Positions 34,610 to 43,548 of a stretch of DNA of 64,000 bases are shown piece by piece (position 1 is the first letter of the stretch; each line of letters starts with the position of its first letter). The notes beneath the pieces are model-generated. The model was given only the letters and a program-made list of their open reading frames with translations, did no database searches and had not been told where the DNA came from. Location of the stretch: NCBI GenBank assembly GCA_965249535.1, contig OZ252241.1, positions 356,673-420,672 of the forward strand. Direction: 5' to 3'. The translations under genes were made by a program, and so were the position numbers. This DNA is from Vicinamibacterales bacterium (GTDB lineage: Bacteria; Acidobacteriota; Vicinamibacteria; Vicinamibacterales; G965249535).

Positions 34610-35083
34610 TCATGTTTCATCGACCTTCAGTAAAAGCTCTCTAATCGTCAATCCAGTCATTGGGTCTACCATATTCGGCGCAATTTCTGCTAGCGGTCGT
34701 AAAACGAAAGCACGTTCGCGGAAGCGAGGATGAGGAAGTTCAATCTCTAAATTTGAAACAATCAGGTCACCCACAAGGATAAGGTCGAGGTCGAGTGTTC
34801 TTGGGGCTCTGTGAAACGGTCTGTCCCTTCCTCGCTCTTGCTCTATGCTCAGGAGATTAGTAAGTAGATCCACTGGTTGAGCCGCTGACAAACCCACAGC
34901 GGCTGCGTTCAGAAACATTCGCTGCGAGCCCATGTCTACGGGCTCCGTTTCAATAAAGCGCGAAACGACAACATCAAGTAGTAAAGATCTTAATCTCTGT
35001 ACGGCGTAGCTTAGGTGATCTTCACGTGCACCCTGATTACTACCGAGTGCAACAGCGATGCGACGAGTCGGGTTCTGCTCCAT
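34610..35083 (-). CDS. folK: 2-amino-4-hydroxy-6-hydroxymethyldihydropteridine pyrophosphokinase
   Basis: IAVALGSNxG, RTLDLDLIL and HPRxxERAFVLxPL motifs. I chose the start at MEQNP; its ATG overlaps the upstream TGA by 1 nt (TGATG). Confidence 0.85.
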   Translation of the reverse strand: MEQNPTRRIAVALGSNQGAREDHLSYAVQRLRSLLLDVVVSRFIETEPVDMGSQRMFLNAAAVGLSAAQPVDLLTNLLSIEQERGRDRPFHRAPRTLDLDLILVGDLIVSNLEIELPHPRFRERAFVLRPLAEIAPNMVDPMTGLTIRELLLKVDET

Positions 35084-35412
35084 CACACACTTTGTTTCTC
35101 CTTGCATGTGATGCAAACACGTGTCCAGGGAATAGCACTAAGTCGAGACGGTGCGATGGGCTCTCCACAATCGAGACATACTCCATACAAACCTTCGTCG
35201 ATACGTCCGAGGGCATCTTCAATCGCTTGAAGAATCTTTGCATCGGTTTGCTTCAATTTAAGTTGAACATGGACATCGTTATTTCCACTTGATTGATCAG
35301 CCAAATCACCCTGGCGTGTGCTCGAGGCCATTGATACTTGCAGAGGCTTCATTCCTTCAATGGACAAAACCTCATTTCTCTTCCTTAGCAGGGCTGCCTT
35401 GTAACCTGACAT
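35083..35412 (-). CDS. DksA/TraR-family C4 zinc-finger protein
   Basis: CLDCGEPIAPSRLSAIPWTRVCITC is CxxC-N17-CxxC, the DksA/TraR finger. The in-frame ATG is at 35412; the track start is a GTG at 35418 inside the tandem repeat. Confidence 0.75.
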   Translation of the reverse strand: MSGYKAALLRKRNEVLSIEGMKPLQVSMASSTRQGDLADQSSGNNDVHVQLKLKQTDAKILQAIEDALGRIDEGLYGVCLDCGEPIAPSRLSAIPWTRVCITCKEKQSV

Positions 35413-35443
35413 ATTCACCTGACATATTCACCTGACATATTCA
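35405..35443. repeat. perfect 13-bp tandem repeat x3 (CCTGACATATTCA) covering the start codon of the DksA-like gene
   Basis: Read directly from the sequence: copies at 35405-35417, 35418-35430 and 35431-35443 are identical. Confidence 0.95.
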
Positions 35444-35530
35444 TTAGTGCTCCTTAGAACACTACCTCCCGATAGCAAGCCTGCGATTATATCATGATGC
35501 CCACAAAACCCATATAATCTAGCCATAACT

Positions 35531-40183: not shown

Positions 40184-40191
40184 AACTTGTC
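40184..40191. repeat. target-site duplication, left copy (AACTTGTC)
   Basis: Identical octamer at 42505-42512. Each copy is immediately outside an IR. Confidence 0.8.
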
Positions 40192-40208
40192 GGTAGTGGT
40201 CAAGTTTG
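40192..40208. repeat. terminal inverted repeat, transposase-stop end (GGTAGTGGTCAAGTTTG)
   Basis: The reverse complement of 42488-42504 is GGCAGTGGTCAAGTTTG, a 16/17 match. The GGT.GTG start resembles the IS1 IR. Confidence 0.85.
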
Positions 40209-40210
40209 AA

Positions 40211-41053
40211 TTAGGCGGCGACTTCTGATTTGGCGTCGAGCAGGCTCACGATATCGGCAATCTCCCACAGCCGATCCGTGACGCCAGCTGCCTGCGCGGG
40301 CGTCGTGCGGAGTGTCTTATGAATTCGGACGAAGTTGTAAAACATATAATGAAGTGCGACCGCGTGCATGTGATTCTCGATCTTCTTACTGAACCCGTTC
40401 GAGAGGCGCGCGAACCGCTTCATGCTCATCCGCATGGTGAGGTTCTGCCGCTCGACGTAGGACGTGCTCACGTGCTTCGGGTCAGGATGCCCGCTGATGG
40501 TTTTCACGTTGATCCCGAGGCACGGCGCGGGACTGTAGGTGCGCTCGGGATCGCTGGACCCGTAGATCTTGTGCAGCATGGCGTAGTCGATGCCGGTGCA
40601 GAAGGCGCTCTCCACAGCTTCCAGGTAGACGCGATACCCGTCCGTGGTCAACTGGACGCGGGTGGTCAGCCGGTCGGCCAGGTCGTGCATGAACGTGTAG
40701 GCCGAGCCGAGGTCGCGGCCACCGACGAGCCACGACGGGACAAGCTTCGTGTCGGCATCAAGCGCGACCCAGGTCCACACGTCGCCAGCCACGTCGGGGG
40801 CGTTCTTCGCGGTCGGCACGTTCTTCTGCTTGGCATAGCAGAACTGCCAGATCTCGTCGCACTGAATACGGCGGCTCGCCAGGTTCCGCAGCGTGCGGTC
40901 CTGATAGGCCGTACACGCCGTCCCGAGATCGGCCAGGAGCTTGAGGATCGTCGGCTTCGAGACGCCCGTCATGCGGGCTGTGGCGTTGATGCCGTTCCCT
41001 TCGACCAGGGCCGCCACGACGCGCACGCGACGGTCAATTGAGAGCCTGTTCAT
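40211..41053 (-). CDS. IS1-family transposase (HTH + DDE, single ORF)
   Basis: MNRLSIDRRVRVVAALVEGNGINATARMTGVSKPTILKLL..., CDEIWQFCYAKQKN, DVWTWVALDADTKL and YVERQNLTMRMSMKRFARLSNGFSKKIENH are hallmarks of this transposase group. Confidence 0.85.
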   Translation of the reverse strand: MNRLSIDRRVRVVAALVEGNGINATARMTGVSKPTILKLLADLGTACTAYQDRTLRNLASRRIQCDEIWQFCYAKQKNVPTAKNAPDVAGDVWTWVALDADTKLVPSWLVGGRDLGSAYTFMHDLADRLTTRVQLTTDGYRVYLEAVESAFCTGIDYAMLHKIYGSSDPERTYSPAPCLGINVKTISGHPDPKHVSTSYVERQNLTMRMSMKRFARLSNGFSKKIENHMHAVALHYMFYNFVRIHKTLRTTPAQAAGVTDRLWEIADIVSLLDAKSEVAA

Positions 41054-41067
41054 AAGGGTATTGTATC

Positions 41068-41616
41068 TTGAACGCTCAAGCATTACAAGAGCTTTCAGAC
41101 TACGGGCGTGGGAGATGTGCGGCAGCTATTGAGGCTGTAGGCCGTCGTAATAAGCCTATTGCCGAGGTCTGCGAAACCAGCGTTCCGGTGCAAACCATCA
41201 AGAAGATTCTCGGAGAACTACTGAACGAATATCGCCAGGGCAACGTCGATCTTCCCTGCGATGTTCGAGGGTTTATTTTTGAGATGAAGTCCGGTCGTTC
41301 AACATACGGTTTCTTTCGAGAATCGTGGGCCCTGCGAGCCTATAGCGTCGTTCGCGGTGAATGGGCGTTTACTTTGCAGGACAGGGAGTGGATTCAGGGG
41401 CTTCTATTCGGATACACGCCTCACGTTATTCAGCGTTTCGTTGATGCAGCGACCGCCGCAGGACGCTTTACCGAGTCGCCCTTACCAAAGTCCAAGTCAC
41501 AGCGCTTCCATGTCCTGAGCATGGAGGAAAACGCTCGCCTTTGCTCAAGGCGATTTCGTATATGCAACATCCGGTCGTCTCGTATATCCCCGACTGACTG
41601 CTCGTCTGTCCGGTAG
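41068..41616 (+). CDS. hypothetical protein (IS cargo), divergent from the transposase
   Basis: 182-aa ORF with a TTG start. I recognise no family. Coding status is inferred only from length and plausible composition. Confidence 0.35.
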   Translation: MNAQALQELSDYGRGRCAAAIEAVGRRNKPIAEVCETSVPVQTIKKILGELLNEYRQGNVDLPCDVRGFIFEMKSGRSTYGFFRESWALRAYSVVRGEWAFTLQDREWIQGLLFGYTPHVIQRFVDAATAAGRFTESPLPKSKSQRFHVLSMEENARLCSRRFRICNIRSSRISPTDCSSVR

Positions 41617-41804
41617 TAGGCATTTGGCCACCTGTTGAATAATTCAAAGCACTGGATTGTGCTTGACCGCTCTATGCTGCTACAGTTCTCCCCGTCCCGC
41701 AAACCGGCGCGACCCGACATCGGGCCACTCGCCGAATACAACACCCCTCCTAGGGGAATAGGCGGGAACCTGCATCTACGCGTGCGGTTTGTGTGACGAC
41801 TGAC

Positions 41805-41828
41805 CCGGTGACCATTTCCGGTCACCGG
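41805..41828 (+). promoter_or_regulatory. perfect 9-bp inverted repeat CCGGTGACC-atttcc-GGTCACCGG, 15 nt upstream of the next ATG
   Basis: Read directly from the sequence. No U-tract follows it. It could be an operator or an RNA hairpin. Confidence 0.4.
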
Positions 41829-41843
41829 CGAAGGGATATCGCC

Positions 41844-42212
41844 ATGCAGAAAACGCTCGTTATCGTTTTGGCGCTGGTAGCCCTCAGCGTACCGATCGTT
41901 GCGCAAACACTGGAGGAACGGCGAGAGCTATTCAATACATTAATTACGGATGAAGACAGCCTGCGTGAGAATATTCAGGCAAAATGCGAGGATGAATGGC
42001 CCATCGACTTTCGAATGCAGAAGTACTGTCAAGACCAGCAGCTAGAAGGGTATACCAACCTTGCAAAGATTTGGAAAGACGCCGTAACGAACATCAAGGC
42101 GACCGCCGTCCAATGCGTCCTTGACTGGCCAGAAGATTTATTGTTCGATTGGACCATGATTCACTACTGCACGAATGATCAGATCACGGCCTGGAAAGCC
42201 TTGCAACACTGA
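41844..42212 (+). CDS. small secreted four-Cys protein with an internal duplication (IS cargo)
   Basis: Signal peptide MQKTLVIVLALVALSVPIVAQ. The motif is repeated: KCEDEWPIDFRMQKYCQDQQ and QCVLDWPEDLLFDWTMIHYCTNDQ. Confidence 0.55.
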   Translation: MQKTLVIVLALVALSVPIVAQTLEERRELFNTLITDEDSLRENIQAKCEDEWPIDFRMQKYCQDQQLEGYTNLAKIWKDAVTNIKATAVQCVLDWPEDLLFDWTMIHYCTNDQITAWKALQH

Positions 42213-42229
42213 CAGGGTTGCTGAGACGG

Positions 42230-42436
42230 CTAGCCCTTCCTGGCATTCCATCGTGCCCGAGCCCCTTTTTTCGCAATGGCGGATCGCTTCTTTGCAGACA
42301 GCTTCTCCGCACGGGCCTTGCCGCCCTTGAGGCGCCCGAGCGCGACGGCGGCGGGGTTCCTCTTCCCCTCCGACTGCTCGATGAGGGCCTGGACGCCTCT
42401 GAACGCCGCCTCGTTCGGATCGTCGGTGATGCTTGT
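42230..42436 (-). pseudogene. start-less remnant encoding a Lys/Arg-rich tail (...NPAAVALGRLKGGKARAEKLSAKKRSAIAKKGARARWNARKG*)
   Basis: Manual translation. The frame opens after a TGA and contains no ATG, GTG or TTG. The tail resembles the GGKAR...RW C-termini of many small proteobacterial proteins. The track ORF 42138..42506 is in a different frame. Confidence 0.4.
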
Positions 42437-42487
42437 TCAGTGTGGCATGCGCGTAGAGTACCATATCGGCCACGGGTGACAACAATC

Positions 42488-42504
42488 CAAACTTGACCAC
42501 TGCC
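42488..42504. repeat. terminal inverted repeat, distal end (CAAACTTGACCACTGCC)
   Basis: Partner of 40192-40208. Confidence 0.85.
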
Positions 42505-42512
42505 AACTTGTC
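42505..42512. repeat. target-site duplication, right copy (AACTTGTC)
   Basis: Identical to 40184-40191. Confidence 0.8.
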
Positions 42513-42582
42513 GAACTCAAAACTGGCTAACCGTTTTTCGAGTACGATCAGTCTATATAACCATCAATCGTAACTCACTCTG

Positions 42583-43548
42583 ATGATGAAACACCTCACA
42601 GGTCCGCTTGTGATTATCGCTTGGGGGTTAATGATGGAGGCAGGAGCCACTCAACGTTTCGAAGAAGCGCACGGGCTGACAACAGTTCCTGGAATTAAGG
42701 TAGGACACTACACACTAAGCGAACGTTTAACGGGATGTACGGTCGTACTGGCTGAAAACGTGGCTGTGGCTGGTGTCGACGTCCGAGGAGCGGCACCTGG
42801 TACCAGAGAAACAGACCTTCTCGATCCTAAGAATACCGTTCAGAAAGTTCACGCGATCGTCCAATCTGGCGGTAGCGCCTTCGGTCTAAATACGGCGGCT
42901 GGTGTCATGCGTTACCTCGAAGAACGAAATATCGGTTTCGAGACCCGGGTTGCGAGAATACCTATCGTGCCTGCAGCTATCCTTTACGATCTCTCCGTTG
43001 GTGAGAATCCAAGAACCCGCCCAACAGGCGAATGTGGTTATCGAGCCGCGCTGACTGCTAGTACCGGACCTGTTGCCCAGGGTAACGTGGGTGCTGGAGC
43101 TGGAGCAACTATCGGTAAACTTAGAGGCCAAGATCGTGCCATGAAAGCCGGTATCGGAAGTATCTCACTAAGACATTCGAACGGGTTGATTGTGGCAGCA
43201 CTTGTGGCAGTTAATTCGATCGGAGACATCATCGATCCTTCTACCGGTAATGTTGTAGCAGGCGTTCGAACACCAGATGGACGAAAGCTCGCCGACGCCC
43301 GTCTACTTCTACGGTCGGGAACCTCTGGCGAAGCACAACCACTCGAAAACACAACATTAGGAGTTGTAGCGACTAACGCACACCTAACCAAAGTCCAAGT
43401 CAGCCAAATGGCCCATGACGGCTATGCGCGCGCTATCACGCCCGTGCACACCCCACACGATGGTGACACTATCTTCTCACTTGCGACTGGTACTTGGTCA
43501 GGTTCGGTCGACATGCTAACAATCGGGGCACTCGCGGCTGATGCCGTA
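42583..43548 (+). pseudogene. S58/DmpA-type (P1 family) peptidase, 5' 96 % of the gene, interrupted near its 3' end
   Basis: Signal peptide, then GIKVGHYT, GCTVVL, DVRGAAPGTRETDLL, GGSAFGL, NTTLGVVATNA (self-processing Thr region) and HTPHDGDTIFSLATG. After ...IGALAADAV the ORF reads in frame into transposase sequence. Confidence 0.75.

Follow-up and report, generated by a model that had tools for sequence, protein, structure and literature searches.

A perfect 13-nt triplication over the start codon of a dksA/traR-family gene in a Vicinamibacterales bacterium: probably a private slippage expansion that keeps an in-frame start

The DksA/TraR proteins are a family of RNA-polymerase secondary-channel regulators. 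Short tandem duplications and deletions that arise by slippage between direct repeats are a general class of bacterial mutation (e.g. Lovett and colleagues). In licA (lic1) of Haemophilus influenzae, the copy number of a 5'-CAAT-3' repeat picks among start codons in different frames; every strain carries the tract, which has 6–33 units and is highly polymorphic; one of the frames has no start and is a true OFF state, with switching at about 1e-2 to 1e-3 per generation (PMC2212159). Translation of one reading frame can also depend on the end of another: that ribosomes can reinitiate where a stop lies close by is established for E. coli, and the M13 geneV-geneVII pair and the coat-lysis pair of the RNA phage GA are examples of such termination-reinitiation (PMC2268962, PMC9955659).

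We analysed a 64,000-nt stretch of contig OZ252241.1 from a Vicinamibacterales bacterium (hereafter the window), in which a 13-bp unit is repeated over the start codon of a gene of the DksA/TraR family. The initial annotation of this DNA had placed a perfect 13-bp x3 repeat here and had stated that it duplicates the start codon; every coordinate agrees on re-reading, and an ATG is present in each copy. The features to which we refer are as follows, in window coordinates.

35405–35443, minus strand: three perfect tandem copies of TGAATATGTCAGG (35443–35431, 35430–35418 and 35417–35405)
35450–35455, minus strand: native Shine-Dalgarno (SD) element AAGGAG, 5 nt ahead of ATG 35444 and the same in 13 conspecific contigs
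35428–35433, minus strand: SD-like AGGTGA at the junction of copies 1 and 2, placed to serve the out-of-frame ATG 35425 and 9 nt before GTG 35418
35415–35420, minus strand: SD-like AGGTGA at the junction of copies 2 and 3, 2 nt ahead of the in-frame ATG 35412 and holding the stop of the leader ORF
35415–35444, minus strand: 9-codon leader ORF (MNMSGEYVR), from ATG 35444–35442, the ancestral dksA start, to TGA 35417–35415
35372–35425, minus strand: out-of-frame 17-codon ORF (MSGEYVRLQGSPAKEEK, then a stop), from ATG 35425 in copy 2, in the third frame
35083–35418, minus strand: dksA/traR-family gene, reading MNMSGYK... (111 aa) from GTG 35418 or MSGYK... (109 aa) from ATG 35412
34610–35083, minus strand: folK (HPPK; PF01288), its ATG overlapping the dksA TGA as TGATG (35085–35081)
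35486–35494, minus strand: extended -10-like candidate TGATATAAT in the FtsX–dksA intergenic region, a reading by eye

The locus resembles licA in that a repeat whose unit is not a multiple of three lies at the 5' end of an ORF, with start codons in different frames, and in that slipped-strand mispairing would be the mutational mechanism. In licA, however, the starts lie upstream of a long tract, whereas here the start and a junction-born SD lie inside the unit and the last copy is always in frame; moreover, the dksA locus has only three copies, is without the repeat in the other strains examined and encodes a cytoplasmic regulator. With the termination-reinitiation pairs it shares a short, well-initiated ORF whose stop lies near a downstream start (UGA-AU-AUG, and GUGA overlapping the GTG), as well as onward coupling, in this case to folK through UGAUG. 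Unlike the M13 and GA pairs, the arrangement at dksA is accidental, the product of a duplication, and is conserved in no relative; and, again unlike those pairs, the dksA start has an SD-like element of its own, so that dependence on the upstream ORF is not required. The closest likeness in kind is to slippage mutations as a class, from which nothing essential differs: the copies are perfect and strain-private, the unit borders show a 1-nt microhomology, and further small tandem differences are found (a 9-mer near position 43404 of the window, and a twofold 13-mer in the related locus L078). What is unusual is that the segment falls exactly on the start codon and that the joining of two copies restores an SD together with a start.

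Read directly, the minus strand runs AAGGAG-cacta-A(TGAATATGTCAGG)x3-TTACAAG, in the wider context ...GGGAGGTAGTGTTCTAAGGAGcactaA(TGAATATGTCAGG)x3TTACAAGGCAGCC..., and the 13-nt periodicity continues 1 nt beyond the third copy, to T35404. Tandem Repeats Finder reports 35404–35443 with period 13, 3.1 copies, 100% matches and a score of 80, by far the strongest tandem array of the 64-kb window, and TGAATATGTCAGG has no further match in the window, also when one mismatch is allowed. Three matches of the 13-mer were seen in 0 of 100 shuffles of the sequence, and by chance about 1e-11 perfect 13x3 arrays would be expected in a stretch of 64 kb. The array measures 39 nt in total, 26 nt more than a one-copy state.

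As the initial annotation had described, the SD-proximal ATG opens a 9-codon uORF, MNMSGEYVR, with which our translation agrees, and the TGA of this uORF lies 2 nt ahead of the in-frame ATG 35412. That TGA also overlaps GTG 35418–35416, and the zinc-finger ORF ending at 35083 shares its frame with both the GTG and ATG 35412; the GTG, itself born at the junction, would give back the full MNMSGYK N-terminus. The ATG of the middle copy (35425), absent from the earlier description, opens the 17-codon ORF, which runs 39 nt into dksA and thus covers its first 13 codons counted from ATG 35412. We considered a function of its own for the leader peptide and rejected it, as the peptide is just the first five dksA codons followed by four frame-shifted codons and is absent from all relatives.

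At each copy junction, ...CAGG is joined to TGAA..., which gives AGGTGA, the complement of UCACCU in the conserved 16S tail. The 3' tail of the 16S rRNA was assumed to be the conserved bacterial 5'-GAUCACCUCCUUA-3' (UCACCUCC pairing), the window itself being without rRNA, and the predicted duplex with this tail is -8.4 kcal/mol for the junction AGGTGA versus -8.3 kcal/mol for the native AAGGAG. The aligned spacing is 5 nt from AGGTGA to ATG 35412 and 4 nt for the native SD. The optimum in E. coli is about 5 nt, as reportedly found by Chen et al. in 1994. The initial annotation had held that expression now needs reinitiation or an SD-independent start, a claim that we do not uphold, since by energy and spacing the junction AGGTGA is predicted to be a near-native SD. 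SD use in the window is moderate, with 27% of first ATGs preceded by an SD against a background of 13%, and SD-led genes do occur, for example taaggaggggcaATG. In folding predictions AGGTGA 35420–35415 is mostly unpaired (P=0.77) and ATG 35412 is partly paired in a local structure (P(unpaired)=0.31); the leaders with one, two and three copies form weak structures only, with little power to discriminate between them. A predicted 8-bp hairpin, UAGUGUUC-UAAG-GAGCACUA, at 35445–35464 of the minus strand half-sequesters the native AAGGAG (P unpaired 0.50); it is found in all conspecific leaders, and its sequence is not kept in the sister species.

We enumerated the reading frames that one to four copies would produce. 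The last unit always supplies an in-frame ATG, and with at least two copies it gains the GTG and an AGGTGA SD as well. With two copies, the native ATG opens an out-of-frame ORF of 19 codons that spans the true start; with at least three, the ORF from the native ATG always ends at the TGA of copy 3. No OFF state arose at any of the copy numbers enumerated (1–4), and, since an in-frame start exists at every one of them, copy number alters the upstream decoy ORFs and not the presence of a dksA start. These results bear on the proposal, made in the initial annotation, of a contingency or translation-tuning switch, in which slipped-strand gain and loss of 13-nt units would reversibly set the level of DksA (and with it FolK) in subpopulations. 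Such a switch would be in keeping with a unit that is not a multiple of three and a tract that sits exactly on the initiation region, with the three distinct decoy-ORF arrangements at one, two and at least three copies, with slippage being mechanistically possible once there are at least two copies, and with the precedent of licA, where repeat number can select the start codon (PMC2212159). On the other hand, gain or loss of a unit does not act as a frame switch, because the last copy keeps an in-frame ATG with its own SD, and there is consequently no OFF phase; the three copies are far below typical contingency tracts (6–33 CAAT units in licA; PMC2212159), the 64 kb is otherwise without strong tandem arrays, and the gene is a housekeeping regulator, neither a surface nor a restriction-modification gene. 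Of the features of contingency loci, the non-multiple-of-three tract over the initiation region is present; both a standing polymorphic tract and an ON/OFF frame logic are absent.

The state of the locus in relatives bears further on this proposal. Exact-protein look-ups yielded 13 conspecific contigs with DNA, three of them Mb-scale and each with its own ENA or Logan sample or assembly accession, some of the 13 probably being re-assemblies of the same data. All 13 carry exactly one copy of the 13-mer in a leader that is otherwise identical, as seen both in alignments and in a regular-expression count, and all read MNMSGYK from the AAGGAG-proximal ATG, which is what had been predicted for a single copy. 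The sister species (88% aa identity; three contigs) has one diverged copy, TGAAAATGTCAGT, with no repeat in 3/3. A scan of GTDB genomes added at least 80 loci at no more than 78% aa identity (the species itself is not among the matches listed), and none of the 80 more distant loci among those matches has a repeat over the start codon. In these 80 listed loci the N-terminus M[DN]xxxYK[DE]ALL[RK] is conserved, and in most of them a GGAG-type SD stands ahead of the ATG. The relatives are thus uniformly one-copy or without repeat, which indicates that the one-copy state is ancestral and prevalent and the three-copy state derived; as far as public data show, the three-copy allele is unique to contig OZ252241.1.

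Alleles with two or four copies were likewise not found among the conspecific contigs, the sister-species contigs, the 80 listed loci or the JGI metagenomes. The 5' boundary 23-mer of the leader had no matches in the JGI metagenomes; two JGI matches to the junction 21-mer were discarded as unrelated GC-rich DNA with a chance imperfect repeat at another locus. Counting copies in related strains and MAGs, a check put forward with the initial annotation, therefore gave one copy in every other conspecific contig and no further length variation, and the description of the site as a contingency locus did not survive it, there being no other copy-number variation at the locus and a common allele without the repeat. 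Without a repeat over the start, the usual allele cannot slip. One Vicinamibacterales MAG with a twofold 13-nt duplication at the ribosome-binding site of the same gene would speak for the switch; that no repeat spans the start in 13/13 other conspecific contigs, 3/3 sister-species contigs and 80/80 listed distant loci speaks against it, and we consider a switch of this kind very improbable.

The duplication in that MAG (SMAG_U4498, DASYQZ010000195.1; our locus L078, 2973–2999), which is among the 80 listed loci, is an independent, perfect 13-nt x2.1 array, TCCCAGAGGGTCA, which lies directly upstream of the orthologous dksA ATG and doubles an SD-like GAGGG. The region may therefore be somewhat prone to duplication. 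The G+C content of the window is 48.4%, and most related Vicinamibacterales loci, leader and coding sequence alike, look much GC-richer; the lineage may be a low-GC branch of the Vicinamibacterales group.

Over the longer conspecific contigs (4–6.3 kb aligned) we counted 12–33 substitutions against the window, and over about 6.3 kb most contigs show no indel besides the 26-nt insertion, while two have one additional 1-nt indel. Over about 20 kb against three strains, the other differences are few 1–2-nt indels, one 9-nt tandem copy difference and one private 2312-bp insertion, which to judge from the sequences is normal strain-level structural variation. The 9-nt difference lies near 43404, where the 9-mer GCCATTTGG occurs twice in conspecific contig L105 and once in the window, indicating that small tandem copy changes are part of the normal variation among strains. 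The 2312-bp segment (40193–42504), present in the window and absent from conspecific contigs L104–L106, is flanked by a 9-bp direct repeat, AACTTGTCG (40184–40192 and 42505–42513), and has 24-nt imperfect terminal inverted repeats; a 290-aa ORF inside it (40211–41083, minus strand) gives weak matches to IS1/IS240-type DDE transposases. From these sequence features the segment looks like a strain-private IS insertion.

An expansion seen in one contig only could also be an assembly or consensus artefact in an organism that truly has one copy, the more so as assemblers can miscount tandem copies. The array, however, consists of perfect copies and has a length of 39 nt, which any read would exceed, and the remaining 15–20 kb show only few 1–2-nt indels against the best-covered contigs. 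The same contig carries the clean private IS with its 9-bp target duplication, which suggests a genuinely distinct strain, and a contig of 2.84 Mb was most likely built from long reads spanning the site. We judge an artefact to be very unlikely.

The gene affected was identified in the initial annotation as a DksA/TraR-type gene linked to folK, and the PF01258 and PF01288 matches together with the TGATG overlap corroborate this. The 109-aa form is identical to the database protein P0002, and the public gene call for the three-copy allele accordingly starts at ATG 35412. The zf-dksA_traR domain (PF01258) matches residues 76–109 with 50.1 bits against a cut-off of 24.9, and a C4 zinc finger of the dksA/traR type (CxxC-N17-CxxC) is present, readable as CLDC...CITC. 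DksA_N (PF21157) gives a weak match that stays under its cut-off (20.6 bits, with 27 required); for close homologues a PF21157 match has been precomputed. Residues 7–109 align to the DksA/TraR-family structure 4ijj, and 2kq9, 6ptg and 1tjl were also aligned. The DksA equivalog level of the NCBIfam models was not reached (TIGR02420, 70.3 versus 115.5; NF033459, 64.6 versus 105). At the level of sequence, then, the protein is a member of the DksA/TraR family and not demonstrably a DksA equivalog.

Compared with described members, it shares the C4 zinc finger (PF01258), and it has a putative coiled-coil N-terminal part that aligns with 4ijj, 2kq9 and 1tjl and a candidate acidic tip of the form DxxDx[A/S]; it differs in length, stopping just past the zinc finger at 111 aa against the 151 aa of E. 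coli DksA. The tip motif itself, at 35300–35317 (DksA residues 38–43), is DLADQS in the window species versus DxxDQA in relatives. This form, which keeps both aspartates and replaces Ala by Ser, occurs in 6 of 122 proteins, those of the species and its closest relatives; 114 of the 122 homologues have D[LM]ADQA, which is the canonical DxxDxA. Homology searching returned 3674 matches, the named ones being MAGs of Acidobacteriota/Vicinamibacterales. Gene callers disagree on the same DNA: an 82-aa product starting from M30 is called in two Mb-scale contigs (L014/L015, 3001–3249), and other calls are of 109 aa (the window allele), of 111 aa elsewhere and of a spurious 42-aa ORF across promoter and leader (L002/L003, 2919–3047). 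We looked at the 82-aa call (P0121) as a possible sign of a disrupted 5' end and dismissed it; because the underlying DNA is intact, with one copy, the call reflects the choice of the gene caller.

Upstream of dksA, on the same strand, lies a gene for an 849-aa MacB/FtsX-type permease, followed on the opposite strand by ispH and a SpoIID-domain gene. Many relatives have elements similar to the -10-like candidate, of the form TGnTAnnAT, 35–50 nt ahead of the orthologous ATG, while a simple scan of the intergenic region for -35/-10 pairs gave none. Rfam, run over the window, returned no family at gathering score and hence no known leader RNA or riboswitch. Among the matches listed, 76 of 80 related loci have folK on the strand of dksA and downstream of it. 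In most of the 80 listed Vicinamibacterales-type loci it starts about 810–930 nt past the dksA start, which leaves room for one gene; it adjoins dksA directly in the window and likewise in 11 of the 80. In the window an AAGGAG stands 15 nt ahead of the folK ATG and is not well placed as an SD, so that folK may be dependent on dksA translation.

This possible dependence matters for a different reading of the allele, as a knock-down or null, in which the strong native SD/ATG and the out-of-frame middle module capture ribosomes and both DksA and folK are depressed; the expansion would then be a mutation, harmful or tolerated under certain conditions, that happens to have been sampled in one MAG. 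Such an effect could follow from three start modules within 32 nt sharing one 30S footprint, from the 17-aa frame-B ORF overlapping the first 13 dksA codons and from the predicted partial pairing of ATG 35412, and would agree with the finding of three copies in only 1 of 14 conspecific contigs and with the lack of a suitably spaced SD at folK. Since de novo folate synthesis normally requires folK, a strong polar block on it would be costly, yet the three-copy state is the consensus of a 2.84-Mb contig. Apart from a single K75E difference the ORF is intact, the SD of the in-frame module is predicted to be of native strength and spacing, and a leader stop 2 nt from the start is a geometry that favours reinitiation (PMC2268962). 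We regard a knock-down or null allele as unlikely, though less so than a switch or an artefact.

The explanation that we prefer, and hold to be probable when taken as a whole, is a private and recent slippage expansion that has turned the native start into a leader ORF while dksA is still made. Replication slippage, in one event or two, would have expanded a 13-nt segment bounded by a 1-nt (T...T) microhomology from one copy to three. The ancestral AAGGAG-N5-ATG module would now drive the 9-codon leader ORF; its SD and ATG, conserved in all conspecific contigs, make this ORF competent, at the level of sequence, for initiation of its own. Every copy junction creates a new module, AGGTGA-AT-ATG plus the GTG, of which the last lies in the dksA frame. 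DksA synthesis would begin at ATG 35412 or GTG 35418, which ribosomes would reach directly through the junction-born SD and, as an additional route, through termination-reinitiation after the leader ORF. folK would stay coupled to dksA via TGATG. DksA and FolK are thus probably still made, on the evidence of the start signals, and likely at an altered level; the level of DksA is probably lowered or altered because three start sites lie close together and compete, the middle one leading into dksA in the wrong frame. The three-copy allele should be revertible by slippage, from three copies to two to one, and faster than by point mutation. In all, the allele looks like an ordinary structural polymorphism with no evolved switch, possibly slightly deleterious or neutral.

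The locus has one practical consequence for annotation, since products of 109, 111 and 82 aa are called for what is essentially one gene. Were copy number heterogeneous in reads, it would represent an unusual repeat-mediated tuning of a stringent-response-type regulator outside host-associated pathogens. That the tract serves, in an uncultured soil acidobacterium, as a working device to tune the translation of a global regulator strikes us as scarcely probable; if it did, slippage among one, two and at least three copies would move three self-contained SD-AUG modules from frame to frame, with native expression at one copy, an overlapping out-of-frame decoy at two and a 9-codon leader with coupled reinitiation at three or more, and would produce heritable, reversible and graded levels of DksA and of the coupled FolK within a population. 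On the preferred reading of a private expansion, the locus is a clear-cut case of slippage altering a translation start and otherwise matters little. It shows that a duplicated start region can repair itself, the junction happening to recreate both an SD and a start codon, and the one-copy and three-copy forms make up a natural allele series for comparing reinitiation after a leader ORF with direct initiation.
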